A DNA stretch of 64,000 nt, from the sequence record MT884009.2. The stretch is one strand, 5' to 3'. Shown here in pieces: positions 19,464 through 60,595 of this stretch (the stretch's first letter is position 1; every line of letters begins with the position of its first letter). A program made the translations under genes and the position numbers. The notes beneath the pieces are model-generated. The model was given only the letters and a program-made list of their open reading frames with translations, searched no databases and was not told the origin of the DNA. The DNA comes from Escherichia phage vb_EcoM_bov11CS3.

Positions 19464-21209
19464 TTAACGTTGTGCAATTACTACGTCTACGATATCACCA
19501 ACACCACAATATGTTAATTGCAGCAAGGTAACACTATTAGCCTTGTTATTAATAACAGGCGTTGCCGACAGGATAGCATACTTATCGTGCAAAGTCACGT
19601 TGTGACCTACAGCATCCTGAATGACATAGATAACCGCAGTGAATGGATAAGGTTTATCTTCCGCTGATGTACCAGGCCATTGTCCTATTGTAAAATCCCC
19701 TTTCGCGTGGACAACATACATACTGGCCTGCCCGTTAGGTGTCCATGTCCCACTGGACGCGTCAACCTCCTCTAAATCAAAATCTACCTTTCCTGCGTGG
19801 AAAGTAGGGGCAGTAATGGTTTTACCCGCCTCAATTTCTTGAGAGGTGGTTATCTTGCCACTGGAGTTAATGCCATTACAAACAAAGTTGACATTAGAGA
19901 AGTCTGGCAGCCACCCAGTCACTGTGCCGGATATTTCAAGGTTGTGAAGGTAGGTGGTGCCCGTCCCTGCTGCGTTTAAACTAACATCTCCATTTACCTG
20001 CAAGTTTCTGGTAACGTTGCAGTTTTCAGAGTTTGCAGTTGTTGCAGTTAAAGTAGTGGTTGTCAGCTCGGTAATTACACCTTTGTTGGCTGTAAGCCCT
20101 TCCCCTTCAAAAGTTGCACGCTCATTGACTCTTAGGGTATTCAGAGCTATGTTTTGGATAGAGGCTGTACCTCGAATAACTACAGATCCGCCAACTTCTA
20201 AATCACCATTTATTAATGCGTCCCCCGTGCTTTCAATATAGCTAGGGTAAATCATGGTGCCATCGACAGAGTAGGTTATCCCTGTAACAGTGCCTGTCAC
20301 CTCAAGGTTCTTAACCTTGGTGGTTCCATCTACCTGCAATGTCGGTTCGGTTGCTGCCTTCATGGCATTACCACGAATGTACACGTAGTCAAAAAAGTTA
20401 TTACCTAGACCATCAAAATGCACATCGTTATTATTAGCCACTGGTTTCCCAGAAGTTATAGTGTCAGCTATAACCCTGTGGGTGGACACTTCATGAGGTT
20501 GCAGCTCTGTGCTTCTCCAGTCTGCATGCTTAGGATCACTCCACGCAAAAGTAAGTGTAGAAGTATTTGCCGTGAGGATTAGGTTCCTGAAGCGTGCAGT
20601 AGAATCTGCTCCATTAACAGGCCCATGTAAGGTGAGTGTGCCACCAACTATAGTGTTAGCAAGTTCTGTAAGACCTTTTACCACCAAAGACCCTACAGTA
20701 ACTTTCATTCCCTCCATGGCTTCAAATATGCTATCCACATAGTCAACAACAAACTCTGTGTTTGCTATAGACTCGGATTTGTCGTCCATTGGAGGCGTAG
20801 GTACTCGCGGGTCACCTTCGAACCTCGGACTGTTAAGTTTTGCGTAGTATTTTGCCATTACTGCAGAATCGGTATATAATCTCCAGTTTGGAGATTGTGA
20901 AGGATCTGCTGGCATTCTAACCGGGTTAGATTTTGATGCTGCGGGAGCGTACCACCACTGAGGGCCTGTGTCCCCTTTAAACTCGTACAGCTGGTTAAAA
21001 ACTGTTGTGGATGCACCATACGCCCAAGGGATCGGTGGCGTTTTAAAATAAAGGGTGTCAAGCATGGCTTTTCGTACCGTAGGGATGGTGGTCCCATCCT
21101 CTACGACAACTTCATCCACAGCGTTACCGTTGACAATCAGGTGCAAACGTTCAGAATCAACAATTACTTGATCTACCGCCTGCTCAAAGCTTGTCATGTC
21201 TTGCGCCAT
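19464..21209 (-). CDS. tail fibre protein, 581 aa
   Basis: Position in fibre cluster; Thr/Gly/Asn-rich repetitive beta-type sequence. Confidence 0.55.
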   Translation of the reverse strand: MAQDMTSFEQAVDQVIVDSERLHLIVNGNAVDEVVVEDGTTIPTVRKAMLDTLYFKTPPIPWAYGASTTVFNQLYEFKGDTGPQWWYAPAASKSNPVRMPADPSQSPNWRLYTDSAVMAKYYAKLNSPRFEGDPRVPTPPMDDKSESIANTEFVVDYVDSIFEAMEGMKVTVGSLVVKGLTELANTIVGGTLTLHGPVNGADSTARFRNLILTANTSTLTFAWSDPKHADWRSTELQPHEVSTHRVIADTITSGKPVANNNDVHFDGLGNNFFDYVYIRGNAMKAATEPTLQVDGTTKVKNLEVTGTVTGITYSVDGTMIYPSYIESTGDALINGDLEVGGSVVIRGTASIQNIALNTLRVNERATFEGEGLTANKGVITELTTTTLTATTANSENCNVTRNLQVNGDVSLNAAGTGTTYLHNLEISGTVTGWLPDFSNVNFVCNGINSSGKITTSQEIEAGKTITAPTFHAGKVDFDLEEVDASSGTWTPNGQASMYVVHAKGDFTIGQWPGTSAEDKPYPFTAVIYVIQDAVGHNVTLHDKYAILSATPVINNKANSVTLLQLTYCGVGDIVDVVIAQR

Positions 21210-24607: not shown

Positions 24608-26680
24608 TTATGAGAAGTCTGGCGGGACAACATCTTCTACATACCCTTTCAGAGCAACCTGCCCCATATGAAGCACGGTAGAATCTCTAGCGGTAACAGT
24701 GATGCTGTCAGACATTACTTGCGGGTATGCCCACACATACTGTTTTACCTCAGGGTATCTATACTCTATAGTTGCCATGTTTCCGCAAATACATCTCCAT
24801 AAAAATTCTTGGTAATTCCTAGTTGGGTCGTAGCCATATACCGGAGCAAGCTCTTTACTAGGAACGAACCCTGCAAGGTATTGTATTTCAGACGGTTGCC
24901 AACCTAACTTAACGATAGGTATGTTTACAGACTCTTTTGCCTTTTCAATACCTCCCTGCATCACCCAATCGTAGCACTCGGTGCAGAAGAAATCAAGAGC
25001 ACCTGCTTCCTTTTTATATTGGTCAGCAAGGTTCAGCTTTTGTGTAAGCTCAGTTTCCATAATGGTTGGGAAAAACAACAAAGCTGTCATCTGAGCTGAT
25101 GCAGCGTGTGCCTTTATTGCCTTTGAAATAGCCGCAATACGAGCGCCAAGCTTACCACGACAAAATGCTACATACTTGTCGTAAACACCGCCAGTTTTAG
25201 GATCGTCAATAGTCCCAATATCTAATGCATACTCACCTGTCTCATCATAAAACGCCTGTTTTGTAGGGTAATCATAAATACAAGGTCTACGAGTATCGGT
25301 ATTGTACCACCACCACGGTTCACCAACCTGCATAATCACTGGCAGGTTGTTTCTCATAGCGGCTGATGCAAAATTCTTAAATACTGCAGTAAGGAAATTC
25401 ATACCCTCTTCAATGGTTGGAGACAGGAGGTAGCTACAAGGTGTATACCCTGTTTTAGCGTAATTATCGTTCCAGTCTCTTTGGGTCCATTCCAACGGGC
25501 AGGCATCGCTGAAAAGCTCAAAACTTACAGATTGCATAACGTCGAAGTTATGTCGTTTGGCATTGTACATAAAATCATCATGCCATTTATAAGCTGCAGC
25601 GTTTAGCGCTCCTGTTCTGTTTATAGACCATTGAGTTCCTGACCATGTGTAGTCATAATAATGACTCATACCAACATAATGGTTTATGGTTCCGGTATAG
25701 CCCAGACGCTTGATATTGTTCAACACCCTTAAAGGAGATACGTTCCACATATCGTCATATGCGGTGCAGATCCCAACGTCGTGCTCTCTCACCTGAATAT
25801 TGTTAAGTTGCATCATTTTCCAGCCTGTGTCTGGCTGAAGCAGATCTAGGCGCAACTCACACTCTACGTTTTCCGTTCTCGGGTCTGTGCTGTTACTTAC
25901 CCAGTCTTTAGGCATAAGCGGTATTAAAATCCTTCTCACCTGCCGAGGATCAACACCCATCATGCTGTTGTTCTGGTCCATCCCGACGCAGTCCTCAAAA
26001 TCAATATGAATTTCTGCAACATTCTTATCCTCTGAGATGCTGACAGCATATTGAGCTAAAGGAACATAGATGATTGTGCCATCAACAAGGTCTACAGTCA
26101 TAATCATCTTTTCAGGAGTGGAGAAGTTGCTGGCGTTGGTTATTGACATTCTGAACCAAAGCTTGGTATTTCTCATCTCATAATGATCATCAAACCCAAT
26201 ACCGAAATGATCATACTTGTCAACTGTTTCCCAAATGCACCCGGCCATACCTCCATATGTTCTTGACACTAAACGGTTAATACAACAGTTATTATCTGCA
26301 ACAATACAGGTACTTTCAGTCTGCTGAGTAGTTGTAACCCAATATCTTGGGTGGAACATTCTCTCCTCAACAGTATCCCAAGATATCCTGTCAAGATTCT
26401 CATCTGAAACTATTGTACATTTCGCCCTTTGTGTTCCAATCATCACCCCTTGGGATTTTGATGAAAACTCCATAAAGAAGCTTCTTGGCAACCTATTGGG
26501 TAATTTGTCAACAATTTCCACCGGGATCTCAATACTGGTTGCCCCAATTGGGATAGTTACATCGCCCTCAACATGATTATAATCCCTACCAGGAACGGCA
26601 GTATCCTGAACTGTTCGGTAATGAAACTGTGCAGCCATTGTAGAGTAATCACGGTAAGGTTTAAAAACAGCTGTTGCCAT
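24608..26680 (-). CDS. tail fibre/tailspike-like protein, 690 aa
   Basis: Size and position between baseplate genes and fibre genes; no catalytic motif identified. Confidence 0.45.
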   Translation of the reverse strand: MATAVFKPYRDYSTMAAQFHYRTVQDTAVPGRDYNHVEGDVTIPIGATSIEIPVEIVDKLPNRLPRSFFMEFSSKSQGVMIGTQRAKCTIVSDENLDRISWDTVEERMFHPRYWVTTTQQTESTCIVADNNCCINRLVSRTYGGMAGCIWETVDKYDHFGIGFDDHYEMRNTKLWFRMSITNASNFSTPEKMIMTVDLVDGTIIYVPLAQYAVSISEDKNVAEIHIDFEDCVGMDQNNSMMGVDPRQVRRILIPLMPKDWVSNSTDPRTENVECELRLDLLQPDTGWKMMQLNNIQVREHDVGICTAYDDMWNVSPLRVLNNIKRLGYTGTINHYVGMSHYYDYTWSGTQWSINRTGALNAAAYKWHDDFMYNAKRHNFDVMQSVSFELFSDACPLEWTQRDWNDNYAKTGYTPCSYLLSPTIEEGMNFLTAVFKNFASAAMRNNLPVIMQVGEPWWWYNTDTRRPCIYDYPTKQAFYDETGEYALDIGTIDDPKTGGVYDKYVAFCRGKLGARIAAISKAIKAHAASAQMTALLFFPTIMETELTQKLNLADQYKKEAGALDFFCTECYDWVMQGGIEKAKESVNIPIVKLGWQPSEIQYLAGFVPSKELAPVYGYDPTRNYQEFLWRCICGNMATIEYRYPEVKQYVWAYPQVMSDSITVTARDSTVLHMGQVALKGYVEDVVPPDFS

Positions 26681-28973: not shown

Positions 28974-31900
28974 TTAGTCGTGAGACTCGTTCCAAGGTCC
29001 CTGGAAGCTTGAGTTAGAACGACTAACGATCACAGTGGGACAGGAGATTGTGACACCTGTCACGCTAGACGTTGACCACGGTGTGTAAATCTCGATAACA
29101 ATGTCTATAGTTTGTTCACCCAGACCTGTTATCCCTACCGCACACATGCCGTTGTTGTCGTTAAAATACTTCTTGCCAGCAAGGATCTGATGACCAGCTA
29201 TCCATGCATTCAATTGGGAGCTGGCAAGAGTACCATTCAGTTTAAAGAAGAATGTTACGTTCTTACCCTGACCTGAAACGTTATCTACGTATCTCCACCT
29301 CCAACGGCAAACCCTTTGCTGGGAGTTATATACTGGAGCACAATCCCCGTAAGTCCTGTGTGCAACAATTGCACCTTCGAACTGGTTAGCGCGGATAACA
29401 GAAGCTTCTACACGACCACGGAAGGTACCTCCGGTTGCATCTATGGTGCCTCTAAAGCTACCATTATTGGCATAAACATCCCCACGGAAGGTACCGCTAG
29501 TGGCGTTAACTGCCCCTGTGAAGTTACCAGAACTGGCGTTGATGTTGCCTTTCACCCACACATCCATAAATTGGGCGTGCCCGTTCTTGTTAATATACCA
29601 ACCGTATTTATGGTACCCGTTGCCATCGTAGTTGTTTGACGAAATTTCTTGTGCGATCTTGGCAGAGGAGATCGTGCCATTCTCTATAAAAGCGTCTTTC
29701 AAGAACGCTTGGTTGTTCTTGATTGCGAAAGCAAGGGTTGCTGTTCCATTGCCAGGGTTGTATACCGCAAAATTGTTTGCGCTAACCATGAAGTAGGATT
29801 GAACTTGGCCTCCAGACCCTTCCATCCCCAACTGAATACCTGCAACATATTTATTCCCTGCGGAGTCTACCTGTATTTTTGTGCCCCATTGAGCATTTAC
29901 TTTACCCTCTAAGTCGGTTACAGCCTTAGATGTTGTAGCTACTGCAGCCCTGATCTCAGACACATCCCCAACATCATCAATGATCTCCTGCTTAGCAACA
30001 GCAAGTTCTTGACGAATAGCTGACGCTGTGCCGTTGATAAGGTCCACAGTGGCTTTGTTGGTATCGGAAATTGTAGCATCCAGCGCTGTTTTTGTGGAGG
30101 TCAGTTTTCCATCCAAAGCATCAATCGCTTGCTTGTTGGTAGAAATCTCCCCACGTGCAGAAGTTATCTGCTCTGACAGTGCAGATGTTTTCTGATTCAG
30201 CAAGTCAGTTGTGGCCTTGTTGGTATTGGCAATCAAGGTGTTGAGGTCAGTTTTTGCGGTAGTTATCTTGCCGTCAAGGGTGGTATAGTTTTTAGATACC
30301 GTCGCGTTTGTCTGACTAATCTTTTGATCCAGAGTTTCAGATGTCCTGTTCAAAAGATCTACAGTGGCTCGGTTAGTGCTCAAGATGCTTGCGTCAAGTT
30401 CTGTTCTCTGAGTATTGATCTTACCATCCAGAGTTTTATCTCCGGCTAAATACCCGCTCTCAACTCCCTCTATCTGCTCTACCAGCTCACCTTTGGCGGC
30501 AACCAATTTCTCATCTAAAGCCTCTGTCTTTTTGTTCAGAAGATCAGTAGTTGCTTTATTGGTTGTCTCAATCAGGGATGCCAATCTTCCACTTTCAGTG
30601 TTCAGATCGTTGGTGAACTTGTTCTGTGCAGCAACAAGTTTCCTATCCAGCGCTGTGATATTGCCATTGACATCCTCAAACTTCTGAGTTGTCTCTGTAA
30701 CTACCGCACCTATTCTGTCTCCAAGTTGCTGGAATGCCTCATCTACCCTACCATCCATGTACCTGTTAAGTTCTGTGACCCTATTTTCAACCTCTTCAAT
30801 AGATGAATCTAAAGTGCTCATCAACTCTTTATAAGTTTCTGTCTTTTTAAATTCAGCATCTATCTGAGGCATCAAATCCTCAATAGAGGTGTAGCAGCGT
30901 GCAGCGCATTCTACAAACTGAGAACTACCAAAAGCGTTTGTGGTTCGAATATACCAATAATAAACCTTATCGTTCTGCAGACCTTCAGATGTCCAAGTTG
31001 AACCAACACCCATACGGGTGGCGTTTGAAGTAACGGTTGCATCACTGGTGTCGGGCAACCTTGTCATACCGGATGTCCAAAAGTCATACTGGGTGCTAAC
31101 ACTTGCTAAATCCCTACTATGCGGAATCAAGGTGATAGCAAAGTATCCTTGCTTAACCTCTACAGAAACCGGAGCTTCAGGTGCCTGAATGTTAAACTCA
31201 CAATACGCTTCTGGAGATACACCACCTTTATAAGATGTTGCAACCACGGTTGCTGTGTATGACCCTTTTGTCAAACCTTCTACTCTGACAAACTGCTCAA
31301 CTGTCTGTGCTGTCCAAACAATCTCTCCGTTCTTTCTTACCTGCACAATGTTTTGAGCATAAGTCCCAACGTTGTCCCAAGCCAAAACACCGTGAGTTAC
31401 TTCCCCAGCTTGGAGAACGGAGTATCTGAAGTTTTGCGGCTGAGCTACACCGGACGGGGATATCGGAATATCTACATCGCCGGAATCCGGAAGTTGCCCT
31501 GTGGCATCATTCCACTCTTTAGCATCTTGACGAAGTTTTACCTTGACACCGCCCTTTTTGGTGAACTCCCATTCAAGAACCCTCATTTCTTGGCCCACTA
31601 TACCAATACTTGGAAGATCCATTGTGACGTAACGACCAGGCTTAAATTTAAAACCTCGCATATTGCAGGTGACTTCAATAATCCTGCCAGCTCTGGCACG
31701 TCTTAAGAATATTGCAGAAACACGCTGAGCTTGATAAGGGCTGGTAACAAAGCGATAGTCTATATCGATTATCTTTCTTTCTCCATCCTTCTCTATCCAC
31801 TCTGGGACAAACACTGATGGAAAATCTGTTTCAGAATACCCTTTGGTCGGACTAGTGAATCTGCCAGTTATTGTGTTAGATCTTTTGTCAAATGAGGCTT

Positions 31901-32813
31901 CAGGATAGATCTTAACCTCACCGCAGACACAATCCTCACTTAGTGTCATTGTTGCCGGGCCATAGTATGCACCTACCAGCAGTCCATACTTACCAGCTAC
32001 ATAGCTGAGATCTGCACCACAAGCTTTCAGCATTTCTGCCATAATACTTGCTGGAGCCTCATCCATGTCGAACTCACCGTTAATGGTGTAACGGCGCTCA
32101 CTGGTTCCGTCCGCGTTTTTTACCGCCTCGTCGCATATGTTGGCAGCCTCCTTGAAGGACTCCCAGTTGATGGTTTCGTCAGGACATTTAAGGTACGTTC
32201 TTAAATAGTCTAGGATCACCAAGGCCGCGTTATTGGTATACACCTCTTTACTGATACGAGGATCATAGCATTTTTTACCAACCTTGACGAGTGTAACGTT
32301 TGGCAACCCAAAAGGGAACTTGTTAGGGTCAAACCTGAAGCTGGCACGTAGCCAACTGATCCCTCTACCTATCATGTCTGGTGACCACGATGGGCAGTGT
32401 GTACCCATGAAAGGATCCGATGTTTTTCTGTCGTTATGTAGCTCCCACGATACCAAATCCCCATACGAGGAAATAGGATTACCGTCGATGAGTATATCTT
32501 CTATACCTTCCAGAGGGTGATTGGCAAGAACAATAGCACAATGGAGGGTTCTGTCGCTATCCTGCTCCAAAAACGCAAGCAATCCAGATGTGCGTGTCTT
32601 CCCATACACTACAGAGCAAGGTGCAGCAGAAGATCTGAGAAGCTTTTGTCTATCTTGCTGACTTCTGTAAGATTTGTTGCCCTCAAAAATCTTATCCAAA
32701 GTTCTGGTGGTCACAGTGTTCAGGCTGTCAGCCAGAGCTGCCTTGGATGCGTTCCAGTCATAACTTGAAGATCTTGCAGAAGCAACGATGTTATCAATCA
32801 TTGCAATTGGCAT
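28974..32813 (-). CDS. large tail fibre/host-specificity-like protein, 1279 aa, with internal tandem repeats
   Basis: Central repeats of the type TNKATTDLLNKKTEALDEKL / TNRATVDLLNRTSETLDQKI / TNKATTDLLNQKTSALSEQI / TNKATVDLINGTASAIRQEL. Confidence 0.55.
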   Translation of the reverse strand: MPIAMIDNIVASARSSSYDWNASKAALADSLNTVTTRTLDKIFEGNKSYRSQQDRQKLLRSSAAPCSVVYGKTRTSGLLAFLEQDSDRTLHCAIVLANHPLEGIEDILIDGNPISSYGDLVSWELHNDRKTSDPFMGTHCPSWSPDMIGRGISWLRASFRFDPNKFPFGLPNVTLVKVGKKCYDPRISKEVYTNNAALVILDYLRTYLKCPDETINWESFKEAANICDEAVKNADGTSERRYTINGEFDMDEAPASIMAEMLKACGADLSYVAGKYGLLVGAYYGPATMTLSEDCVCGEVKIYPEASFDKRSNTITGRFTSPTKGYSETDFPSVFVPEWIEKDGERKIIDIDYRFVTSPYQAQRVSAIFLRRARAGRIIEVTCNMRGFKFKPGRYVTMDLPSIGIVGQEMRVLEWEFTKKGGVKVKLRQDAKEWNDATGQLPDSGDVDIPISPSGVAQPQNFRYSVLQAGEVTHGVLAWDNVGTYAQNIVQVRKNGEIVWTAQTVEQFVRVEGLTKGSYTATVVATSYKGGVSPEAYCEFNIQAPEAPVSVEVKQGYFAITLIPHSRDLASVSTQYDFWTSGMTRLPDTSDATVTSNATRMGVGSTWTSEGLQNDKVYYWYIRTTNAFGSSQFVECAARCYTSIEDLMPQIDAEFKKTETYKELMSTLDSSIEEVENRVTELNRYMDGRVDEAFQQLGDRIGAVVTETTQKFEDVNGNITALDRKLVAAQNKFTNDLNTESGRLASLIETTNKATTDLLNKKTEALDEKLVAAKGELVEQIEGVESGYLAGDKTLDGKINTQRTELDASILSTNRATVDLLNRTSETLDQKISQTNATVSKNYTTLDGKITTAKTDLNTLIANTNKATTDLLNQKTSALSEQITSARGEISTNKQAIDALDGKLTSTKTALDATISDTNKATVDLINGTASAIRQELAVAKQEIIDDVGDVSEIRAAVATTSKAVTDLEGKVNAQWGTKIQVDSAGNKYVAGIQLGMEGSGGQVQSYFMVSANNFAVYNPGNGTATLAFAIKNNQAFLKDAFIENGTISSAKIAQEISSNNYDGNGYHKYGWYINKNGHAQFMDVWVKGNINASSGNFTGAVNATSGTFRGDVYANNGSFRGTIDATGGTFRGRVEASVIRANQFEGAIVAHRTYGDCAPVYNSQQRVCRWRWRYVDNVSGQGKNVTFFFKLNGTLASSQLNAWIAGHQILAGKKYFNDNNGMCAVGITGLGEQTIDIVIEIYTPWSTSSVTGVTISCPTVIVSRSNSSFQGPWNESHD
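30040..30620 (-). repeat. about four imperfect in-frame tandem repeats (150-185 bp period) inside the 1279-aa gene
   Basis: Recurring plus-strand units at about 30049, 30212, 30365 and 30550 (e.g. CAGTGGCTTTGTTGGTATCGG / GTTGTGGCCTTGTTGGTATTGG). Confidence 0.5.
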
Positions 32814-33250
32814 TAATACCTCCAGACATCAACAACGATAGAATCTTTCATGTCGAACATAAAGACCCCTTTATCACCTTTCGCCCAAATCTGGTTGTTC
32901 CAGAACACACCAGCGGTGAGCCCGTTCAGACCTTCGAAAATGACAATATCTCCACGCTGAACCTGTTTAGGAGTATCCAGCCGAGTCATAAAGAGATCAA
33001 AAATAGTAGGCAGGTGTGTGGTTTTGAAACGAAGCATGCACCATCTTTTGCTTTCCAACTCTGTTTTATACGTTCCTTCGAAGTTAGAAAGAAAATCTGT
33101 TCCGTATTGGGCATCAACACACTTAGCTGCAAAGGTGCAACAATCGTGGAATCCCCATTCAAAAGGTATGGTGGCCTCTTCGTCAAACACTTTCCACAAT
33201 CTTTCTTGCCAATCCACTAAACGAGGGTGTGTGCTCATTAAACCTCCCAA
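32813..33250 (-). CDS. hypothetical tail-module protein, 145 aa
   Basis: ORF track; contains FHDCC and later His residues (weak peptidase-like hint only). Confidence 0.45.
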   Translation of the reverse strand: MGGLMSTHPRLVDWQERLWKVFDEEATIPFEWGFHDCCTFAAKCVDAQYGTDFLSNFEGTYKTELESKRWCMLRFKTTHLPTIFDLFMTRLDTPKQVQRGDIVIFEGLNGLTAGVFWNNQIWAKGDKGVFMFDMKDSIVVDVWRY

Positions 33251-33804
33251 ATGATCGGGCGGCTCGCCACCTGATCCACATATTTAAAAAATCTGTCATT
33301 ATCGTTTCTTGAGCTGTGGCTTTCCTCCGTGTACCGATAAGGAAAACCTCTTAACCAACTGTTGAAGATGGAAGAGATGGATATGGACAAAGCACTATTC
33401 TCCCCTGTCTGAATAGCCATATCTGTTATAAGGCCGTCAAACAAGCCATTAGTTGTGACAGGCAGACCATTCTCCATAGCGGTAATGTACAACGTGGCAC
33501 GACAACCGGAATACTCCGTCTTCAGAAGATCACCCACATACTTAGGATCAAACCCGTTCAATGTCGCTACCACAGATCCGAAGTTGGTGGCATCTTTCTC
33601 AGACACAGCAGTTAACGTTGCTGATCCACCTATCCCTATAAAATGTTGCCCCTCAATTACTACCACACCAGTGCCTGAGCACACCCTGACAGTTCCTGTC
33701 GGTAGCTCTAGCTTTGCAGCAATTAAAATCTCAACACCATCAAGCTCCAGCTTTTCAAGAAATAAATTATCTAATGGCGCTCTGATCATCTTAGAAATCC
33801 TCAA
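33238..33804 (-). CDS. tail/baseplate protein, 188 aa
   Basis: ORF track; overlapping neighbours. Confidence 0.45.
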   Translation of the reverse strand: MRISKMIRAPLDNLFLEKLELDGVEILIAAKLELPTGTVRVCSGTGVVVIEGQHFIGIGGSATLTAVSEKDATNFGSVVATLNGFDPKYVGDLLKTEYSGCRATLYITAMENGLPVTTNGLFDGLITDMAIQTGENSALSISISSIFNSWLRGFPYRYTEESHSSRNDNDRFFKYVDQVASRPIIWEV

Positions 33805-34381
33805 AGAAGTTGATAACTATATTATCACCTTTTTGCATAGCATCGACTTTTTGCTTAATTTTATGAATATCTCTGATATGAAACCTACCCTTCGGGGATT
33901 GAGTTATTATCTTCATAGTGTCCCCTGCGGCAATAGGTTTTCTAAGTCTTGGAGATATGCTTATAACAGCAGCCCCAACACCATCACTGCGCACTGGAGC
34001 TGTTACCACTTTCAACTCATCATTGACAGATATTTTATCGCCAGCTCTAGCTATGTCTCTGTTTGGCTCCCACCCAACCGTCTTCAAAAAATCGTCGTTA
34101 CCAGTAGGCCCCAGGGCGATTGGCTCATTAGCTGTTACTGAGTGACCGTAAGTTTTAATAAGAAAGATGTTTCCATCTTTATACACCTGATCAACAAAGC
34201 TCTTAAGCTCTAACAACTGTGACTCGCTGATATTAGAGACCGTCAAAGTGCCTTTCCAATTAGGTGTGGCATAGGTTACTTTTTGCGTTTTACCTGTAAA
34301 CGGACTTTTAAACGTAACAATATCTGCCAGCAGCTCCAATCTAATATCTGGAAGGTATCTAGGCCTTTCCCATAAAAACAT
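33791..34381 (-). CDS. tail/baseplate protein, 196 aa
   Basis: GGAGG before ATG 34381. Confidence 0.45.
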   Translation of the reverse strand: MFLWERPRYLPDIRLELLADIVTFKSPFTGKTQKVTYATPNWKGTLTVSNISESQLLELKSFVDQVYKDGNIFLIKTYGHSVTANEPIALGPTGNDDFLKTVGWEPNRDIARAGDKISVNDELKVVTAPVRSDGVGAAVISISPRLRKPIAAGDTMKIITQSPKGRFHIRDIHKIKQKVDAMQKGDNIVINFFEDF

Positions 34382-34480: not shown

Positions 34481-37400
34481 TTACTTCAATTTCTCTTGCA
34501 ACCCAGTAACAACCTCTGTCAATTTTTTAACCTGCTCCTCAAGGGCGGTTATTTTATCATCCTGTTCCCTGCAAACCTGGACAAGCAAGCCTGTTACAGC
34601 TGCGTAATCCACGCTGTAGAATCTTTCCTCTGTTATCAAAGGAGTTCCATCTTGATCAGGGTTTGGGATTTCCTTTCTTTGCACGAAAGAGCTAACCGCT
34701 TCCGGCAGAGCTTCAAGCACTTCTTGTGCTATAACACCTGCATAAGGCATACCGTTCTCTTTAAGAGTGTAAGTATAACCCTTCATCTTCCGGATAGCTT
34801 CTAACGCATCAGGAATAACAGCTATGTTATCTTTCAGGTCTCTGTCAGAACTCTGATTGACAGATGTGCAATTCACAGCGCCGTTTACAGAAAGATATCT
34901 TGATTTATCCGGCAAGGTACCGCAATGCCATACCCAATTTGATTGAGACTCGTCAAGAACCTTAAACTCTAACACGTTTGGACGATCTCCTGTGCTGCCG
35001 TTACCCCAATAATACATATGGGCGGCATTAGCAGGCATGTTGCCACCGTTATTAGTAACATGGCTTCCAGAAATATACACCTTTAACTCTGGGGTTGGTA
35101 TTTCCCCTTCTGGGGTTGTTCCTCCATACCTGAAGCTAACACCATTACCACCTGTTTGGGTCCACGGGCCCCAAGTGAAGACCTGTTTCACCATATTCCC
35201 ATAACGTGTGAATCTATCGCCATGGTAGGTAATATACTCTTGAACACACCCATTACCGTCATTGGCGTTATTTTGCAACACAATAAGTGTTCCGGCCTCA
35301 TTTACGGGATAATGACGATCATATGTTGCATCATTATTTGCAGGCTGATGGTAAATACCTTCCCACAATCCGTGATAGGTGTTAAGGTCTGAAGAACCAA
35401 GACCTTGACCCCTGTGTTGCATGGCCTTATTCCAGGGATGGTGATTACCACCTTCTATAGACCTGGTGTATAAGTTACTTTGTCTGCCAGCAATCTGGAA
35501 AGCGTAGTTTCCCGAGAATCCTACAGATAACCCGCCTACAACCATGGTATCCTGTGGGCCGTTAACATTACCAGCTATTATTTTTGACGGGTTGTTAGGC
35601 CCAAACTGGTTGTTCCAGTCTGCACCCGTGTGGCATACAAAACCGCCCGGAGCTGAGAAAGTGCCATCTTTGTTGAAGTTGTAGAATCTATGAGCTGTGC
35701 CTACAACATCACGAACAATAACTTGAGCAGCTTCTGGAGTAGACCTGAACTCTGCTTGACCTTTAAGGCCAGCACCATTACCGCATTTAGAGGTAAACGT
35801 GCCGTTAGTTAGATCCTCTGTTCCATCTGATGCACACTGGAATCCTGCGTTAGAGAATAGCGCCTTTCTAGGACCACTGTAGCACAAATAGTCAAAACCG
35901 TCAGCCCATAGCTCTACTTTAGGCATGTTCATTTTGCTCATTATCGCATAGCGTTCAGCAGTGCCTATATAGTGCCACTGTGTGCCGCCGCCAGTGTAGA
36001 ACCCAGAGGTACCTTTGAAGTCAACAATAGGTCTGGTGTTGGTATTGTTATCTCCGAGAACAGCCAGATTTAAATCTGCTGACTGGAGAGGTGCAACGAA
36101 CTTAACACCGTCCTGATTGTCTGTTACAGAGCCAACCTGGTAATCTTGCTCCCTGGTAAACACCTCGACAACATTTCTACTTGCGTATATGCTGACAGGG
36201 AAAGCACGCGCCTCTGCATAGAAAGCAACATATTCTTGTTTACCCCTTGTTGGAGCAACCATCCCAAGAAGTGCTTTTTCATTCTGGTAGAAATTTACTA
36301 CCCCGTAGAAAGAGTCTCCTCTGTCTGTCCAACCACCAGTTCTATAGTGACACTGTAAGGTAGCACAGTTCATAGGGTCATTTCCAGATGACGATCTGGT
36401 AACTATGGTAATATCAGTACCAGTTGCTGGAGCATAGTACGGATCTGTTCTAACGATGATCGGGTAGTATTTCCCATCTTCCATCCCTGCGGTTCTTGGC
36501 AGTGTTAAGAAGTCTTTCACACCTGCTGCTATAGGAACTTTGAACAGATTCTGAGCATCTGCTAGAGTTGTAGCCCCGGTGCCACCTGCGGCTTGAGGTA
36601 GAGGTTCCCACTTGGCCTTCCGGTTGTTATAAACACCCCATTCCAGAGTGCCGTTACCGGATTCGTCCATCCCGCCATCCCAGATAACCATCTTGGCGGC
36701 TTTCTTAGATCCCCAGAAGCCTCTTTCTGCTCCTGAACTACGTATCCACTCTCCAAGTCCCCAGTTTGTCAGCTGACCAGTAAGATCCCCAACCTGCATG
36801 TATTTAGGGCAGTCTAATACACCGTCTTCGCGGAAACCCAAATATCTATGAGTTTCAGATCCTTTTGCACCTTTGTGGAGGTGGATTGTCAACCAAGCCT
36901 TATTGTCGTTTCTTACCTCAGAGTAGATCCTATATCCATGCTCAAGGACACCGTCAGCGCTGTATTTGTCCCCGTTAACAATACCGGATGCTGACTTAAC
37001 ATCAGCAGAACTTTGAGACAGGTAAAGGTGCCCGAAGGTAGGAGAATTTCTAGACCCGAGACCGATGTGCGATCTAAAGGTATCATCGTTACGAGGTCTA
37101 ACCATCGGCTGCCATGCAGTCCACTGATTTGTGTTGGCCTGATAGGTTCTCAAATACCAAACATCTACGTTAGAGAATGGGTAGTATTCCTGACGACAAC
37201 CTGTACCGCCGTTAGCATTGTTCTGCCAAACAATCAAGTGACCAGCACCAGAACCTGCAGGGTAACCATTTGCCTCAGTTGCATAAGCAGTCATCGGCTG
37301 GTAGTATACACCATCCTGATTACCAGTCAAGTTATTGATATTGAAATTTGGCTCAAGGGCTGCACGTTGCTTATAGAAAGCACCGATATTGATACGGACT

Positions 37401-38293
37401 CCAGCGGCATCTCTAGCCCCTGTGCCGCCTTGCTCTATAGCAAGAGGTTGCCACGAAGCTGTTTGTTGGTTCCACATACCCCAACGGCCTGTTGCATCAA
37501 GCTGCAAGTACCCTGCCGTATTTAAATCATCTCCAGCACGGATAACTGTTCTTGTTGGGTTGTTTGCCTCTAGGCGTTTAAATTCATCACGAAGTGCTAT
37601 TCTTTTCGTTGTTGCTACACCGTTGGTTACTGCAATGGTGTACATGGCTCCGGTGGTAGCGCCACGGAAAATACCATCAACAGTTGTAGTATCACGGCGA
37701 GATACCACACCGTTCAGAAATTTTTCACCAGCTGCTACAGAAGGGTAGTTGGTGGTTCTTCCCTCTTCAATAACTGCAGGGCCAACAAAGTTATCAAGGT
37801 GAATAACATCGCCTACGGTGTGCACTGTACCAAAATCTACACGCTGTGCAAGTGCTTTAGCATCGTTAGCTGTCTGAACAGTAACATCCATTACATCCTG
37901 GACAGACTGCCCTTCGGCTGTCATGATCATAGATGCGCCAATGGTAGATTCCAGCTCCTCCCTTAAGGACGGGTCAGTATATACCATCCATGCAGCGTCA
38001 GTAATCCCACCATCAGCGTACGGTGAAGACAGTGCAGGAACAGTGTGCGGAAATTCGCCTTTCCAACGCAGGTAGAGGTCTTCCTCTTCGAAGTAGGCAA
38101 AATCCATTGGGCCGTTTAACTTACCACCTTCCTTAAAGGAGATTACATGAGAAACAGTCCCATCCACATGGACAACATCGCCAATTTTTACACGACGGGT
38201 CAGGTCTGGTTGCTGAACAACCAGGTAATCATCCTCTGTCACTGCGGTAGTGGCAGGAAGAGATTCAATTCTGACAACTTTAATATCAGCCAT
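34481..38293 (-). CDS. tail fibre/tailspike protein, 1270 aa, with N-terminal anchor module and C-terminal intramolecular-chaperone-like domain
   Basis: N-terminus shares DD(F/Y)LVV.Q.D.TR..KI.DVV and FAY motifs with the 222-aa protein; C-terminus (SSDRDLKDNIAVIPDALEAIRKMKGYTYTL ... coiled tail) resembles self-cleaving fibre chaperone domains. Confidence 0.55.
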   Translation of the reverse strand: MADIKVVRIESLPATTAVTEDDYLVVQQPDLTRRVKIGDVVHVDGTVSHVISFKEGGKLNGPMDFAYFEEEDLYLRWKGEFPHTVPALSSPYADGGITDAAWMVYTDPSLREELESTIGASMIMTAEGQSVQDVMDVTVQTANDAKALAQRVDFGTVHTVGDVIHLDNFVGPAVIEEGRTTNYPSVAAGEKFLNGVVSRRDTTTVDGIFRGATTGAMYTIAVTNGVATTKRIALRDEFKRLEANNPTRTVIRAGDDLNTAGYLQLDATGRWGMWNQQTASWQPLAIEQGGTGARDAAGVRINIGAFYKQRAALEPNFNINNLTGNQDGVYYQPMTAYATEANGYPAGSGAGHLIVWQNNANGGTGCRQEYYPFSNVDVWYLRTYQANTNQWTAWQPMVRPRNDDTFRSHIGLGSRNSPTFGHLYLSQSSADVKSASGIVNGDKYSADGVLEHGYRIYSEVRNDNKAWLTIHLHKGAKGSETHRYLGFREDGVLDCPKYMQVGDLTGQLTNWGLGEWIRSSGAERGFWGSKKAAKMVIWDGGMDESGNGTLEWGVYNNRKAKWEPLPQAAGGTGATTLADAQNLFKVPIAAGVKDFLTLPRTAGMEDGKYYPIIVRTDPYYAPATGTDITIVTRSSSGNDPMNCATLQCHYRTGGWTDRGDSFYGVVNFYQNEKALLGMVAPTRGKQEYVAFYAEARAFPVSIYASRNVVEVFTREQDYQVGSVTDNQDGVKFVAPLQSADLNLAVLGDNNTNTRPIVDFKGTSGFYTGGGTQWHYIGTAERYAIMSKMNMPKVELWADGFDYLCYSGPRKALFSNAGFQCASDGTEDLTNGTFTSKCGNGAGLKGQAEFRSTPEAAQVIVRDVVGTAHRFYNFNKDGTFSAPGGFVCHTGADWNNQFGPNNPSKIIAGNVNGPQDTMVVGGLSVGFSGNYAFQIAGRQSNLYTRSIEGGNHHPWNKAMQHRGQGLGSSDLNTYHGLWEGIYHQPANNDATYDRHYPVNEAGTLIVLQNNANDGNGCVQEYITYHGDRFTRYGNMVKQVFTWGPWTQTGGNGVSFRYGGTTPEGEIPTPELKVYISGSHVTNNGGNMPANAAHMYYWGNGSTGDRPNVLEFKVLDESQSNWVWHCGTLPDKSRYLSVNGAVNCTSVNQSSDRDLKDNIAVIPDALEAIRKMKGYTYTLKENGMPYAGVIAQEVLEALPEAVSSFVQRKEIPNPDQDGTPLITEERFYSVDYAAVTGLLVQVCREQDDKITALEEQVKKLTEVVTGLQEKLK

Positions 38294-38307
38294 TCTTTCT
38301 CCTGAAA

Positions 38308-38324
38308 GGGGGCAAACAGCCCCC
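38308..38324 (-). terminator. GC hairpin between 865-aa and 1270-aa genes
   Basis: GGGGGC-TGTTT-GCCCCC on the minus strand, followed by TTTCAGGAGAAAGA-ATG. Confidence 0.35.
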
Positions 38325-38328
38325 TATG

Positions 38329-40926
38329 TTAAAGGTACAATCCACGGTATTGAGCATAAAGGCCCAGACCGCGAAGGATTTCGCCAGAGTGATAGCCAAC
38401 CGGATCAGAAACTGCCCAGCAGCCGTTTAAAATATTATCCCCATTAATGAAGTGGTGCTTTTGCAGTAGCTTCACACAGGCTTCTACAACAATATCTATT
38501 TGAGGTATTGTCTCTGAATACCCGCACAGACCTAGCCAGCAGCAACCTGCAAGCCATTCACCTACCACCCACATCCTGTCTCCTCTGTCCTGATAAGAAT
38601 ATCCCCCAGAGGTGTTAAAGTCTGTAGGCAGATTTCCTGAATGAGATGACTGGAATCTGTTGAGGAACCATGCCCATTTCTGGCAGAACAGGAATAGTCT
38701 TTCATCAACAGGTTCTTTATGTTTCTTGAGCTCATATATTGTGCGGCACGCAGCAACAAAAGATCTTGACTGGAGCTTAGAGTTATCTACCATCTCCCAC
38801 CAACCAGTCAACCCTTCATTACCTCTTTGCCATACATAACGTGAGGCAACTGGACCCTCTGTCTTAAATGTATTATTATACCAGACTTGAGCGTCATACA
38901 GAAAGCCTATTGTATTTGACAATCTATGGCGATCTATGTTTTCTGCACCCATGCAGTAGACTGCTGGGTATTGCATGCCAGGGTAGGGCCAATTTGGCTT
39001 TTCCTCTAAGAGATAGTTTTCCTTATCTATCACCTTTCCGGCAGGGAACACACCCGGTGTGTGCCTGTATGCACCTTGCTTGTAGTTTCTGACATAGCAA
39101 TCTCCAACCTTAGCGGTTGATTCTGTCTTGCTTGCCATCCATACACTAAACCAGATTAGATAAGCATCCCTATCTGCAATATAGAATTGCGGCAGCGTGT
39201 TGACGCAATATAGATCAAACAAGCCATTACCTATCTGCCTGTCGCTTAGGCTGAAATCCACAGAGGTGAGCCCCTTAGGATTAGCAAAGAAAGGTTTAAT
39301 CTCTTCTTCGGTGTGATGAGGTTGTGTCGGATCTAGTTTGAAATCTCCTAGAGTAAGAGTTTCTGTTATCCATTGTCCATTAGTGGCATATAGATCAGCA
39401 TACCATAACCACCTGTCTTTGTCAAGAAATTTGACCCTTACCATCTCATCATCTGATCGATAAGTTACTGAGTTTAAAGAAATCTCTCTTCCAAAATTGA
39501 AAGTTACTTTACCTCTTGCTATATTACAACGGGTGAAGTTGTCAGAGTGGTTGTAAATGTCGGTATCATACTGCATACTGACACTAGCGCCACCGCTCAC
39601 GGCAATGTTTTCCTCTTTAGGTAAGAGATACGGATTACCGTCTTTACCAACCACCTCTACGAAATCGGTAACCTTGGCAACTATTTCTGTTACCTCTGCC
39701 CCTCCAAAAGGAACCCCTATCCTGTACTGTTTTTTGTTATTGTTGCCATCATTAAGGATGAAATGTGGCTGGAACAGAACCCCTTCTCCTCCGAAATTCA
39801 TAACAATTTCAGCATCTCTGCCTATTTTGTATGTAGTCCCTTTTTGGATTATTTCGCAAGGCTGGCGTGCGTTCATTCTAAAATTGATATACCCGTCACT
39901 GTCCCTGCTCATGACAGGAACTGTTCCTGCAACAAGACAAGTACCATCTGTAAACGGTGCCTTAATCAACGTGGTCTTTCTAAACAGTTTGTCGTAGGCG
40001 TTTATATCACTGAAATTAAGCAACTTGTTGTAAGACTGTTCAAACGCGGTGTAATACTTTTCCTCACCTGTTAAGGTGTAGAGTTGATAACAAGCGTCAC
40101 ACCACATCTCTTCCCCGTCCAACTCTGGGGCTTGATTATCTGCAACCACGTTTATAGGATTTACAATTACAGGCGATCCTGCAGGTATCACCGATCCACC
40201 CTGCTCTTGGGGTAATCTTACACAATAGGTCACCTTGTGGCTGCCTGTAACACCCTTATCTTGTAATTGGATTGTGCCGAACTCTACAGACGTATGACCA
40301 CTGTCGGCTATGCTACCGTTAGCCCAATAGCGGTTACCATCCCATGCTATATACCACTCAACCCACCAACTTAATCCAGATGTTGTCCAATCTGGGTTAG
40401 CATCTGTGCCGCCGTAAACATCAGCGTCTACAGTGTTTCTTCCTAACACACCGTTATATGCTTGGAAGGCCTTGTCCAGGTATTCTCCCCATGTCGGAGA
40501 TCCAGCTGGGATTTTTCCTCTACCGTTAGTAAAAGACACCACCACATCTTTAAACCCACCATGTGATGGGACCCCGTCTGTGGATAGAGGGTAGTGGGAC
40601 AATCTTTGCATTTTACTTTCTACAGCATATGCGCCCAGAAGATGACTATTGTAAGCTTCCCAAGCATCTTTTGCCCTATCCAGATAGAAATCGCTTTTCG
40701 ATGCCCTGTATGCTTCAATGTATCCCAGAATCAACACAGCTTGGGACTCATGCATTGCCCAATCATTATTTATCTTATTACCTGCCCACCCTGCAGCTAT
40801 AAGACCATCAGGGTTTACTAGCTTATTTTGTGTAGGGGTGTTGGTAATACCTGTGTTGTTATCGAGGCACTTCCTGTGCCCCTCAATCATCTGAAATACG
40901 TTATCAATGTTGTGTTGAATACGCAT
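38329..40926 (-). CDS. putative tailspike/depolymerase-like protein, 865 aa
   Basis: Large Trp/Tyr/Gly-rich protein without the N-terminal anchor module, located directly downstream of the 222-aa adaptor-like gene. Confidence 0.4.
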   Translation of the reverse strand: MRIQHNIDNVFQMIEGHRKCLDNNTGITNTPTQNKLVNPDGLIAAGWAGNKINNDWAMHESQAVLILGYIEAYRASKSDFYLDRAKDAWEAYNSHLLGAYAVESKMQRLSHYPLSTDGVPSHGGFKDVVVSFTNGRGKIPAGSPTWGEYLDKAFQAYNGVLGRNTVDADVYGGTDANPDWTTSGLSWWVEWYIAWDGNRYWANGSIADSGHTSVEFGTIQLQDKGVTGSHKVTYCVRLPQEQGGSVIPAGSPVIVNPINVVADNQAPELDGEEMWCDACYQLYTLTGEEKYYTAFEQSYNKLLNFSDINAYDKLFRKTTLIKAPFTDGTCLVAGTVPVMSRDSDGYINFRMNARQPCEIIQKGTTYKIGRDAEIVMNFGGEGVLFQPHFILNDGNNNKKQYRIGVPFGGAEVTEIVAKVTDFVEVVGKDGNPYLLPKEENIAVSGGASVSMQYDTDIYNHSDNFTRCNIARGKVTFNFGREISLNSVTYRSDDEMVRVKFLDKDRWLWYADLYATNGQWITETLTLGDFKLDPTQPHHTEEEIKPFFANPKGLTSVDFSLSDRQIGNGLFDLYCVNTLPQFYIADRDAYLIWFSVWMASKTESTAKVGDCYVRNYKQGAYRHTPGVFPAGKVIDKENYLLEEKPNWPYPGMQYPAVYCMGAENIDRHRLSNTIGFLYDAQVWYNNTFKTEGPVASRYVWQRGNEGLTGWWEMVDNSKLQSRSFVAACRTIYELKKHKEPVDERLFLFCQKWAWFLNRFQSSHSGNLPTDFNTSGGYSYQDRGDRMWVVGEWLAGCCWLGLCGYSETIPQIDIVVEACVKLLQKHHFINGDNILNGCWAVSDPVGYHSGEILRGLGLYAQYRGLYL

Positions 40927-40927
40927 C

Positions 40928-41596
40928 TTAGATAGCTCCTGCGATAATCAGTGCCCCGTACCAAGTTAACCCGTTGTCGTAGGTTTCCAACTTGAAAATA
41001 TCTGTTGCACCAGCTGTAAATGTTAGGATAGGATCTCTTCCGTAGGACCATTTAACATTACCAGGCCAATATACTTTGTTGCCGCCAGAGGTCTGAGTAA
41101 TGCATACGGTTATAGTTCTCGCCACTCCTTCAAGACCTTCTGTTTGATTTTCAAAAGAGATTGTGGTATTTGAAGTTAGTCGAACCTTAAAGGTATCCGC
41201 AACTTCAAGATCCATATCAAGCTGACCACCGATAGATCCGTAATCAACTATTCTGCCAGAAGAAGTTGCAGCAAGCTCACCAAAAACAGACCAGGCATTT
41301 GCAGACACACCCCCAGCACCCTCTACAGTGGAGTCTGGGAGGATTATTTTAGGATAATCCCCGTTCCACGTGTAGTAGCGCTTAGTTTCTGGGTCATAAG
41401 CAAAGTCCTTCTTGCTCTTAAGATAACCACCCTCTGTGAAATAGACTATCTTAGTAATGCTAAGATCGTTGACAACATCGTCAATCTTAGCCTTTCTTGT
41501 CCCATCAGTCTGGTTGACAACCAAGAAGTCATCACTCAAGACTGTTTCTGCATCTTCAAGATCTGGAATTGGTATTGTAGGATAAGCTACAGCCAT
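40928..41596 (-). CDS. tail fibre adaptor-like protein, 222 aa
   Basis: N-terminus IPIPDLEDAETVLSDDFLVVNQTDGTRKAKIDDVV parallels the N-terminus of the 1270-aa fibre. Confidence 0.45.
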   Translation of the reverse strand: MAVAYPTIPIPDLEDAETVLSDDFLVVNQTDGTRKAKIDDVVNDLSITKIVYFTEGGYLKSKKDFAYDPETKRYYTWNGDYPKIILPDSTVEGAGGVSANAWSVFGELAATSSGRIVDYGSIGGQLDMDLEVADTFKVRLTSNTTISFENQTEGLEGVARTITVCITQTSGGNKVYWPGNVKWSYGRDPILTFTAGATDIFKLETYDNGLTWYGALIIAGAI

Positions 41597-58266: not shown

Positions 58267-58316
58267 AGTATCTCCAATTACTTTATTGTACCACATCTAA
58301 TTAAGATTGGCAACAC

Positions 58317-59864: not shown

Positions 59865-60151
59865 TAACCGCTCTCCTTTGGAAACAGTGTTCTAATATAG
59901 TCTTGCAAAATGATCAATTTAGCTCTATCATTGCTACAAGACAGATTATTATCCCTCATAATGCCAGAATTCACTGCATCTGGCGCACCTTTCTTCAAAG
60001 GCATAGCTTTAGCAGGTGGTTTCATGGCACCTTCCGGGGGTTTAACAATCAACCTTCCTACATCCGGAGGGTCAATCTTGTATTCTCTCTCAACGTTGGT
60101 TGCACACCCACATAATAACAAGCACACAATAAACAGTGTAGCAACTCTCAT
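59864..60151 (-). CDS. o-spanin (Rz1-like outer-membrane lipoprotein), 95 aa
   Basis: Signal peptide with lipobox LLLCGC, Pro-rich mature part; AGGAGG before ATG 60151; ATGA overlap with the upstream i-spanin. Confidence 0.6.
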   Translation of the reverse strand: MRVATLFIVCLLLCGCATNVEREYKIDPPDVGRLIVKPPEGAMKPPAKAMPLKKGAPDAVNSGIMRDNNLSCSNDRAKLIILQDYIRTLFPKESG

Positions 60152-60546: not shown

Positions 60547-60564
60547 TTTAAGGCTCCAGAAACG

Positions 60565-60595
60565 AAAAAACCCCGCAGCTATACAGCTAACGGGG
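60565..60595 (-). terminator. Rho-independent terminator
   Basis: CCCCG...CGGGG stem followed by TTTTTTCGTTTC on the minus strand. Confidence 0.55.

Follow-up and report, generated by a model that had tools for sequence, protein, structure and literature searches.

How does a phage mount on its virion a large, enzyme-like protein that has no anchor of its own? This question is raised by a 7.1-kb region of Escherichia phage vb_EcoM_bov11CS3 (sequence record MT884009.2), from which a stretch of 64,000 nucleotides (nt), the window, was analyzed. On the minus strand, at positions 34,481 to 41,596, the region codes for a protein of 222 amino acids (aa), one of 865 aa and a tail fiber of 1270 aa, which correspond to gp43, gp42 and gp41 of phage rV5 (Table 1). 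The phage is a Vequintavirus (rV5-like) by identity and synteny with type members: the region is 100% identical to Escherichia phage vb_EcoM_bov22_2 (MT884010.2), has 96.6% nucleotide identity to phage V5 and 96-99% identity to about a hundred Vequintavirus (rV5-like) genomes, and its gene order is that of RudolfGeigy. An earlier note, made from the sequence alone, had described the same three open reading frames (ORFs), and their coordinates, lengths and strand all match. It had read them as a branched receptor-binding system, with the 222-aa protein as adaptor for an 865-aa spike and the 1270-aa fiber docking directly.

The arrangement that we propose, and that we consider fairly probable though far from certain, has four parts. 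The 222-aa protein would be a small, probably trimeric, baseplate-anchored connector, the first ~105 residues of which (an N-terminal peptide, here called N-peptide, plus a Tail_spike_N domain) would plug into a socket at the baseplate periphery. Its C-terminal knob would be the cognate docking site for the anchor-less 865-aa protein, the product of the next, probably translationally coupled gene; this protein probably binds or cuts surface polysaccharide and would serve as an accessory host-range factor. The 1270-aa fiber has a paralogous plug and would thus occupy an equivalent socket, with a different distal module. Finally, the 222-aa protein would have an additional essential role, probably a structural or triggering one in the baseplate. 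By analogy to phi92, the most evident candidate for the socket lies in a wedge protein of 496 aa that is Baseplate_J-like (homolog of phi92 gp145), namely in its C-terminal domain.

Residues 8-105 of the 222-aa protein align with residues 7-105 of the 1270-aa fiber (38% identity, 55% positives, E-value 3e-18 in BLASTP). The module of roughly 100 residues that the earlier note had proposed for these two proteins is thus borne out by a significant alignment, which contains all of its motifs (DD(F/Y)LVV.Q.D.TR..KI.DVV, FAY and GG..A.AW). Both proteins match Pfam PF18668 (Tail_spike_N) above its gathering cut-off of 25 bits, with 41.0 bits for residues 51-105 of the 222-aa protein and 39.0 bits for residues 46-103 of the fiber. 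The plug fold is like that of the N-terminal domains of CBA120 TSP1 and G7C gp63.1. An all-against-all BLASTP comparison found the module in no other protein of the tail cluster, and a hidden Markov model (HMM) of the first ~48 residues matches only the 222-aa and 1270-aa ORFs in the window. Beyond the window, the N-peptide of the 222-aa protein aligns, as it does with the 1270-aa protein, with PVP-SE1 gp51 and gp49 and with alia_20 of a phi92-like phage; its HMM also matches alia_23 (E 3e-9) and the phi92 endosialidase EndoN, gp143 (E 1.6e-11). The predicted local distance difference test score (pLDDT) of the N-peptide is below 50 in the model of the 222-aa monomer, as expected for a segment that is ordered only in the assembly.

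Sharing of the plug has in part been recorded before. The PVP-SE1 record calls gp49 'similar to rV5 gp43 at N-terminus', and a P22-tailspike-like N-terminus was reported for gp43 (Kropinski et al.). The orthologs bas52_0024 and bas54_0025 are labeled 'sialidase domain protein' in the BASEL annotation. No sialidase domain is detectable in the 222-aa protein, and the label seems to rest on the noncatalytic N-terminal module that it has in common with tailspikes.

The 865-aa protein lacks the plug, as the earlier note had held: neither PF18668 nor any other Pfam family matches it, and it has no similarity to the plug module (plug HMM). In an exhaustive HMMER search, 92 members of the family were recovered from 1.84 billion representatives. 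We consider the family as a whole to be devoid of an N-terminal anchor because the alignment begins at the members' own residues 5-15 in nearly all cases. The structural model is a confident (alpha/alpha)6 barrel of glycoside-hydrolase (GH) type, interrupted by beta-sandwich inserts (Table 1). In the comparison with known folds, the figures listed are 28.8 for GH8, 28.5 for GH105, 28.3 each for GH48 and cellobiose 2-epimerase, 27.2 for GH76 and ~26 for GH88, with only ~10% sequence identity to these (alpha/alpha)6 enzymes. At the sequence level, there is no match in Pfam, NCBIfam or the PDB copy searched and no CAZy-type family signature; homologs of the protein have sub-threshold matches only, to GH127 and GH76 (E 0.03-0.07). 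The domain search proposed in the earlier note thus returned no family, while the model supplied a glycoside-hydrolase-like fold. Of its 'enzyme-like spike', the first half stands and the second does not, since the fold is of (alpha/alpha)6 glycosidase type and not a trimeric beta-helix.

Conserved columns among 42 diverse homologs are E60 and Q62 (in a TEGQS-like motif), D270, D678, Q680, W699 and R721. Judged by this conservation, E60, Q62, D270, D678, Q680 and R721 are candidate active-site residues. The segment of residues 1-58 combines high conservation with a lower pLDDT and would be the first candidate for a contact with the knob of the 222-aa protein, which has a conserved Trp/Asp face. 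PHROG 23426 matches residues 482-580, and the beta-rich inserts seen in the model may have a carbohydrate-binding role.

The case for docking comes from the knob, a beta-sandwich formed by the last ~105 residues of the 222-aa protein, with the motif Q.(S/T)G.NKV.WP.NVKW..GR.P.L......D......D.G..W.G. The protein as a whole matches PHROG 7760 ('tail fiber protein', E 8e-120). In alignments, the knob is kept at the C-terminus of differently anchored proteins from ten lineages: rV5-like phages, PVP-SE1, phi92/alia, Rosemountvirus birk, Vibrio D506, Aeromonas Atoyac10, Yersinia ISAO8, Crifsvirus A24, Kolesnikvirus vEam_S_24 and an SU10-like contig. In all ten lineages opened, the gene right behind that of the small knob protein codes for an 865-aa homolog, with a 1-nt gap or, in other lineages than that of the window, an overlap of 1-8 nt. 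This spacing (for the junction in the window, see Table 1) is as would be expected for translational coupling. Searching 50,697 phage records by tblastn gave 533 records with the 222-aa protein and 522 with the 865-aa protein; these are nearly the same phages, with near-identical genus counts. A scan of IMG/VR with an alignment of the knob only returned 80 loci, 78 of them with enough downstream sequence to be evaluated. At 74 of the 78, which are not phylogenetically independent, a gene of the 865-aa family on the same strand has its start within -15 to +61 nt of the point where the knob match ends. Across ten pairs, knob identity and partner identity rise and fall together (r 0.65, Mantel p 5e-5). 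Comparative genomics (74/78 loci, ten lineages) thus supports the adaptor role that the earlier note had assigned to the 222-aa protein, short of proving it.

What precedes the knob varies. The knob protein has N-peptide plus Tail_spike_N in rV5-like phages and PVP-SE1, the N-peptide only in phi92-like phages, a Pfam Phage_T7_tail root (E 1e-11) in the T7-like phages Atoyac10 and ISAO8, and coiled-coil-like segments in Rosemountvirus, Crifsvirus and the SU10-like contig. A large group of contigs of 20-38 kb has a major-tail-protein domain at this place (PHROG 158, E 3e-21). In this tail-tube group, the largest among the IMG/VR loci, the major-tail-protein domain makes up residues 1-141 of a 563-aa protein that ends in the knob; downstream follow a 940-aa homolog of the enzyme and then a plain 168-aa major tail protein, which has 38% identity to the N-terminus of that 563-aa protein. 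The group is represented by L043 (3609-8649) and ~45 similar loci (L029-L077), where the knob is joined to the tail domain by a fiber-like linker. With this organization, the enzyme may be carried on the tail tube. In the T7-like phages, the sole fiber gene codes for a shortened root-plus-knob protein, and the 865-aa homolog has no root. In phage SU10, the genes for the proximal and distal long fibers lie between adaptor gp11 and short fiber gp16 (PMC9509320); in the SU10-like contig, the pair replaces these two genes, between the homologs of gp11 and gp16.

Nor is it only in the window that the knob protein has its anchor in common with another protein of the locus. Such sharing is found in eight lineages, with mutually unrelated anchors: besides rV5, in PVP-SE1 (gp51/gp49), phi92/alia (gp140/gp143 and alia_20/alia_23), Crifsvirus A24, the SU10-like contig, Vibrio D506, Kolesnikvirus and the tail-tube group. 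In several lineages, the second protein has little beyond the anchor. Two anchor-sharing proteins with an anchor-less enzyme between them are, by sequence, a recurring triad and not specific to rV5. The simplest reading of the paralogous anchors is that a single type of socket serves two kinds of subunit or fiber, of which one displays knob and enzyme. The 'branched' system of the earlier note is not supported in the CBA120 sense; the data fit two distal modules on equivalent sockets, reached by paralogous plugs. Cryo-EM papers on phiTE, Bas63, Sf14, SU10 and Pa223 describe no solved homolog of the knob/enzyme pair.

From this distribution, knob and enzyme would be a portable two-gene cassette, grafted onto whatever structural anchor the phage has. 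A bolder claim, which we put forward tentatively and with some doubt, is that the knob and the (alpha/alpha)6 enzyme constitute a previously undescribed, horizontally mobile 'plug-and-play' adsorption cassette that can be placed on any anchor (myovirus baseplate plug, T7 root, SU10-type root or tail-tube protein), typically accompanied by a knob-less paralog with the same anchor that shares the socket type, and that has become an essential baseplate part in rV5-like phages. Such a cassette may also offer a way to fit a monomeric enzyme to an anchor that is trimeric or hexameric.

Some observations on individual family members stand beside this. The 865-aa homologs of PVP-SE1 (Vequintavirinae) and of phi92-like phages (Stephanstirmvirinae) are 77% identical, although both have only ~36% identity to the rV5-type protein and the corresponding knobs are only 47% identical; these values point to lateral exchange of the enzyme gene between the subfamilies (homologs compared: L004 12666-15455, L003 12345-15221 and the window gene). 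A few distant knob proteins (L011 5001-6621, L082 3162-7923, L095 4278-5793) have no 865-aa homolog behind them but a Laminin_G_3 protein, a collagen-repeat protein (past a 133-aa ORF) or small ORFs. Phage_phiTE_241_C of Pfam is present in one knob protein. Partners other than the 865-aa family may therefore be docked by the knob as well. P0070, a metagenomic cluster representative of 293 aa, has the N-terminus of the 865-aa family in its first ~190 residues, directly followed by a knob (HMM E 4e-20). Three origins are conceivable: a genuine 'daisy-chain' variant, recombination or an artifact of assembly. Fusions of the Rosetta-stone type were suspected in four homologs of the 865-aa protein (P0029, P0036, P0040 and P0066), where N-terminal extensions of 270-380 aa have a knob-like end, but they were not used as evidence because hhalign gave a probability of only 2%.

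Data from relatives bear on the proposed arrangement in both directions. All three proteins, gp41, gp42 and gp43, were detected in rV5 virions by proteomics (PMC3606486), so that absence of the 865-aa protein from virions, which the earlier note had named as contrary evidence, does not apply in rV5. The transposon map of Bas54 (HIDEN-SEQ preprint, 10.1101/2025.11.20.689424; ortholog numbering checked) has 7 of 47 TA sites hit in bas54_0025, the ortholog of the 222-aa protein, which is classified as essential. The orthologs of the 865-aa protein (bas54_0026, 94/189 sites) and of the 1270-aa fiber (bas54_0027, 154/238 sites) are intermediate and tolerate insertions. In the K-12 competition data, bas54_0025 has no insertion at any TA site, and insertions in bas54_0026 begin 28 nt into the gene (10.1101/2025.11.20.689424). 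A polar effect was considered as the cause of the bas54_0025 result and excluded because the next six downstream genes tolerate insertions.

Several of these and other points weigh against our proposal. With the 222-aa ortholog essential on K-12 and the 865-aa ortholog not, carrying the 865-aa protein is not the sole or main function of the 222-aa protein; as an adaptor it must do more than the earlier note had assumed. In the 2026 cryo-EM study of phi92, gp147 is fiber III and gp143 is inferred to be the distal part of fiber I, while fiber II, gp140 and gp141 are left without density assignment (PMC13450770). The N-peptide-bearing endosialidase is thereby put at the distal end of an L-shaped fiber, and the plug may accordingly dock on another fiber protein, not directly on the wedge. 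Coupling of knob and partner is loose (PVP-SE1 versus alia: 77% for the partner, 47% for the knob). The 865-aa homolog is missing at four knob loci, and one distant knob protein precedes the Laminin_G_3 protein. The phylogenetic non-independence of the IMG/VR loci is to be added here.

The essentiality pattern also feeds the alternative that survives best, which we nevertheless regard as unlikely. The 222-aa protein might be an autonomous essential mini-fiber or a peripheral baseplate protein, its knob binding a receptor or a part of the baseplate; the enzyme would be attached elsewhere or loosely, and the genes would be paired by way of the same glycan. An essential 222-aa ortholog next to a dispensable 865-aa ortholog speaks for this. 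The knob sits at the C-terminus, the usual place of receptor-binding heads, and resembles the capsid-spike knob of Pa223; the 865-aa homolog is missing at some knob loci; and phi92 gp140 was modeled as a small fiber in its own right (PMC13450770). Such a mini-fiber would, however, leave the 865-aa family without attachment in T7-like and SU10-like podophages, whose known sockets take only the root of the small protein. It also leaves unexplained the 95% immediate adjacency, the overlapping stop and start codons and the unrelated anchors.

A reversed topology, in which the 865-aa protein is an arm-like scaffold on the wedge and the plugs of the 222-aa and 1270-aa proteins dock onto it, is improbable. 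The Tail_spike_N-type N-terminal domains of CBA120 TSP1 and TSP3 and of G7C gp63.1 reportedly dock on fiber proteins, not on the baseplate, which would agree with it. So would phi92, where the L-shaped 'fiber I' arm carries gp143 distally and a second fiber branches from its base (PMC13450770), gp143 and gp140 having the same N-peptide. In other lineages, however, the shared anchor is a T7 fiber root or a tail-tube domain, which binds the virion and not the 865-aa homolog. With the 865-aa ortholog of Bas54 dispensable and the 222-aa ortholog essential, incorporation of the latter cannot depend on the former. It is, moreover, the knob and not the plug that co-occurs with the 865-aa family, which this topology leaves unexplained.

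That the 865-aa protein is no receptor-binding or depolymerizing virion enzyme at all, but helps in assembly or is what remains, inactive and structural, of a glycosidase fold, is very improbable: it would account for the missing Pfam and CAZy-type signature, for dispensability on K-12 and for a homolog in phage S144 that its authors found to be like neither a fiber nor a spike (PMC7432712), but it is at odds with the presence of the ortholog in rV5 virions, with the high-confidence barrel and its conserved acidic and polar columns across 42 homologs, and with retention of the family beside adsorption genes in many phage lineages. Comparative data disfavor all three alternatives.

Returning to the proposed connector with its putative knob-docked partner, we note that the proposal also concerns the 1270-aa fiber. 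Low-resolution cryo-EM of Bas49 and Bas54 revealed three fibers at the baseplate, including the Peptidase_S74-terminated 'TC12' (PMC12143355). We predict from sequence that the 1270-aa fiber belongs to this class because no other protein of the tail cluster has a Peptidase_S74 domain. A motif, (H/T)LIV(W/L)QNNAN(G/D)G(T/N)GC(R/V)QEY, is repeated at residues ~352-370 and ~1001-1019 of the fiber. An internal duplication, suspected by eye, was not supported by self-BLAST at E 1e-3.

Table 1. Coordinates of the three proteins, their parts and further tail-cluster genes in the 64,000-nt window.
Feature	Residues	Coordinates	Strand	Remarks
222-aa protein		40928-41596	minus	ortholog of rV5 gp43 and Bas54 bas54_0025; N-terminal plug plus C-terminal knob
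N-terminal peptide of 222-aa protein (MAVAYPTIPIPDLEDAETVLSDDFLVVNQTDGTRKAKIDDVV...)	1-47	41456-41596	minus	first half of plug
Tail_spike_N domain of 222-aa protein	~48-108	41273-41455	minus	second half of plug
Beta-sandwich knob ('C-dom') of 222-aa protein	~116-222	40931-41251	minus	model pLDDT ~85-90
Gene junction (ATCGCAGGAGCTATCTAAGATGCGTATTCA)		40915-40945	minus	GGAG, TAA stop of 222-aa gene, one base, ATG of 865-aa gene
865-aa protein		38329-40926	minus	ortholog of rV5 gp42, phi92 gp141 and Bas54 bas54_0026; anchor-less, glycoside-hydrolase-like
First piece of predicted barrel	~1-96	40639-40926
Second beta-rich insert	~100-260	40147-40629	minus	strand-only segments of model
Middle piece of predicted barrel	269-311	39994-40122
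Beta-rich insert	~329-613	39088-39942	minus	strand-only segments of model
C-terminal helical part of predicted barrel	~655-864	38335-38964	minus	secondary structure of model
1270-aa tail fiber		34481-38293	minus	ortholog of rV5 gp41 and Bas54 bas54_0027; PHROG 6578
Plug of 1270-aa fiber (N-peptide plus Tail_spike_N)	1-105	37979-38293	minus	BLASTP, PF18668
Peptidase_S74 intramolecular chaperone domain of 1270-aa fiber	1149-1200	34694-34849	minus	PF13884, 52.1 bits against a cut-off of 22
Siphovirus-style tail-tip module		28974-34381	minus	four genes
196-aa protein of tail-tip module		33791-34381	minus
188-aa protein of tail-tip module		33238-33804	minus
145-aa protein of tail-tip module		32813-33250	minus
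1279-aa protein of tail-tip module		28974-32813	minus	lambda-J-like
690-aa protein		24608-26680		N4 non-contractile tail sheath families (NCTSP_N plus TIM barrel, E 4e-80), Calx-beta domain
581-aa fiber		19464-21209
1875-aa fiber		13786-19413		contains Big_2

All genes of the tail cluster are on the minus strand, and their order follows from synteny with annotated relatives. Tape measure, tube initiator, plug, hub, spike and a sheath-initiator-like 238-aa protein come first, followed by the 222-aa, 865-aa and 1270-aa proteins. A lambda-like tail-tip module of four genes and the wedge proteins are next; the N4 gp65-like protein, two Mu-like short fibers with a chaperone and the 581-aa and 1875-aa fibers are last. 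The earlier note had counted the large ORFs as an unusually large set of receptor-binding proteins. They are all present, but the 1279-aa (lambda-J-like) and 690-aa (N4 non-contractile tail sheath-like) proteins are not fibers, and so large a set was known before as a hallmark of Vequintavirinae and of phi92-like phages (PMC8594841).

The tail-tip module is of siphovirus style, although it lies within the baseplate cluster of a myovirus. Its parts are a 'distal tail protein' (PHROG), a 'tail protein', DUF6950 and the lambda-J-like protein with Phage_Tail_Tip and Ig_J domains. The module is missing at this position in PVP-SE1 and phi92; there, wedge genes come next after the fiber or spike gene, separated from it by no more than one small ORF (phi92 gp144). 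Its four Bas54 orthologs tolerate transposon insertions. Among the other Bas54 orthologs, those of the 690-aa protein and the 581-aa fiber are essential on K-12 and that of the Big_2-containing 1875-aa fiber is dispensable.

Two points concern sequence records. About 18-23 GenBank records named 'Campylobacter phage' (host C. jejuni; MG065658, MG065661, MG065682, MG065676 and others) are 97.5-100% identical to the region and look like contaminants or mislabeled assemblies. In the BASEL record of RudolfGeigy, the coding sequence for the large terminase subunit (L001 43824-45958; roughly 58300-62400 of the window) is annotated in three joined segments, a sign that introns, inteins or similar elements may interrupt it.

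The assignment of genes to fibers in rV5-like and phi92-like phages is unsettled, as explicitly stated by Maffei et al. 2021. A testable assignment, with an essential connector carrying a glycosidase-like protein and a long fiber using the same plug, would help to read the cryo-EM maps, and conditional essentiality of fibers in transposon data could be seen in this way too. We regard the finding as moderately interesting because this assignment problem becomes directly testable. Should knob and enzyme prove to be a portable pair with exchangeable anchors, they would provide a template for host-range engineering, the module being moved among myo-, sipho- and podophages by a swap of the anchor only.

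Part of this is already known from other systems, namely the multi-fiber arsenal, the Tail_spike_N module and the principle of an adaptor plus an enzyme (K1-5/SP6, CBA120, G7C). In the available literature, we found no description of a cassette with exchangeable anchors (including tail-tube anchors), of an (alpha/alpha)6 docked partner or of the anchor-sharing triad. Compared with GH8, GH105/GH88, GH76, GH48 and AGE-type 2-epimerases, the 865-aa protein differs in that its barrel is broken by two large beta-rich inserts and that it has no family-level HMM match. In T-even phages of the T2 and S16 types, the distal adhesin gp38 is bound to the tip of gp37. The likeness is that a fiber protein encoded just upstream holds, at its C-terminal end, a distal protein from a separate gene. 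There is, however, no kinship in sequence or fold, and gp38 is a small adhesin and not an enzyme-like protein of ~100 kDa.

In CBA120 (TSP1-4) and G7C (gp63.1/gp66), several receptor-binding proteins are likewise mounted via modular N-terminal domains, and the plug is of the same PF18668 family and fold as the N-termini of TSP1, TSP3, TSP4 and gp63.1. In the proteins described here, however, no recognizable XD docking domains like those of T4 gp10 were identified, two proteins carry the same plug instead of one docking on the other, and the anchor-less 865-aa partner has no TSP-type N-terminus and is not a beta-helix.

In phages K1E, K1-5 and SP6, an adaptor of the gp37 type with a T7 gp17-like root carries separately encoded tailspikes (PMC13450770). 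As in those phages, the short protein would provide root and docking site, and the enzymatic receptor-binding protein is separate and root-less; Atoyac10 and ISAO8 have the same layout, a protein with a knob on a Phage_T7_tail root coming just before the 865-aa homolog. At the gene level, a root-bearing short protein adjoins a root-less enzyme, and the two are co-inherited while the roots vary, as in K1-5/SP6-type systems. The differences are that the protein presumed to be docked has an (alpha/alpha)6 fold, typical of monomeric enzymes, and is not a trimeric beta-helix or endosialidase spike, that the docking element would be a small C-terminal beta-sandwich knob, and that the root in the window is a Tail_spike_N module on a myovirus baseplate.

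A further parallel is the 'Swiss army knife' adsorption apparatus of phi92 (gp140-gp143, gp150, gp151). Its locus is orthologous, with gp140 consisting of N-peptide and knob and gp141 being the 865-aa homolog. The endosialidase gp143 has the N-peptide of gp140, just as the 1270-aa fiber has that of the 222-aa protein. The phi92 locus differs in that gp140 has no Tail_spike_N half of the plug, that the variable partner is an endosialidase and not a 1270-aa fiber, and that the N4 gp65-like protein, gp142, is encoded inside the cluster.

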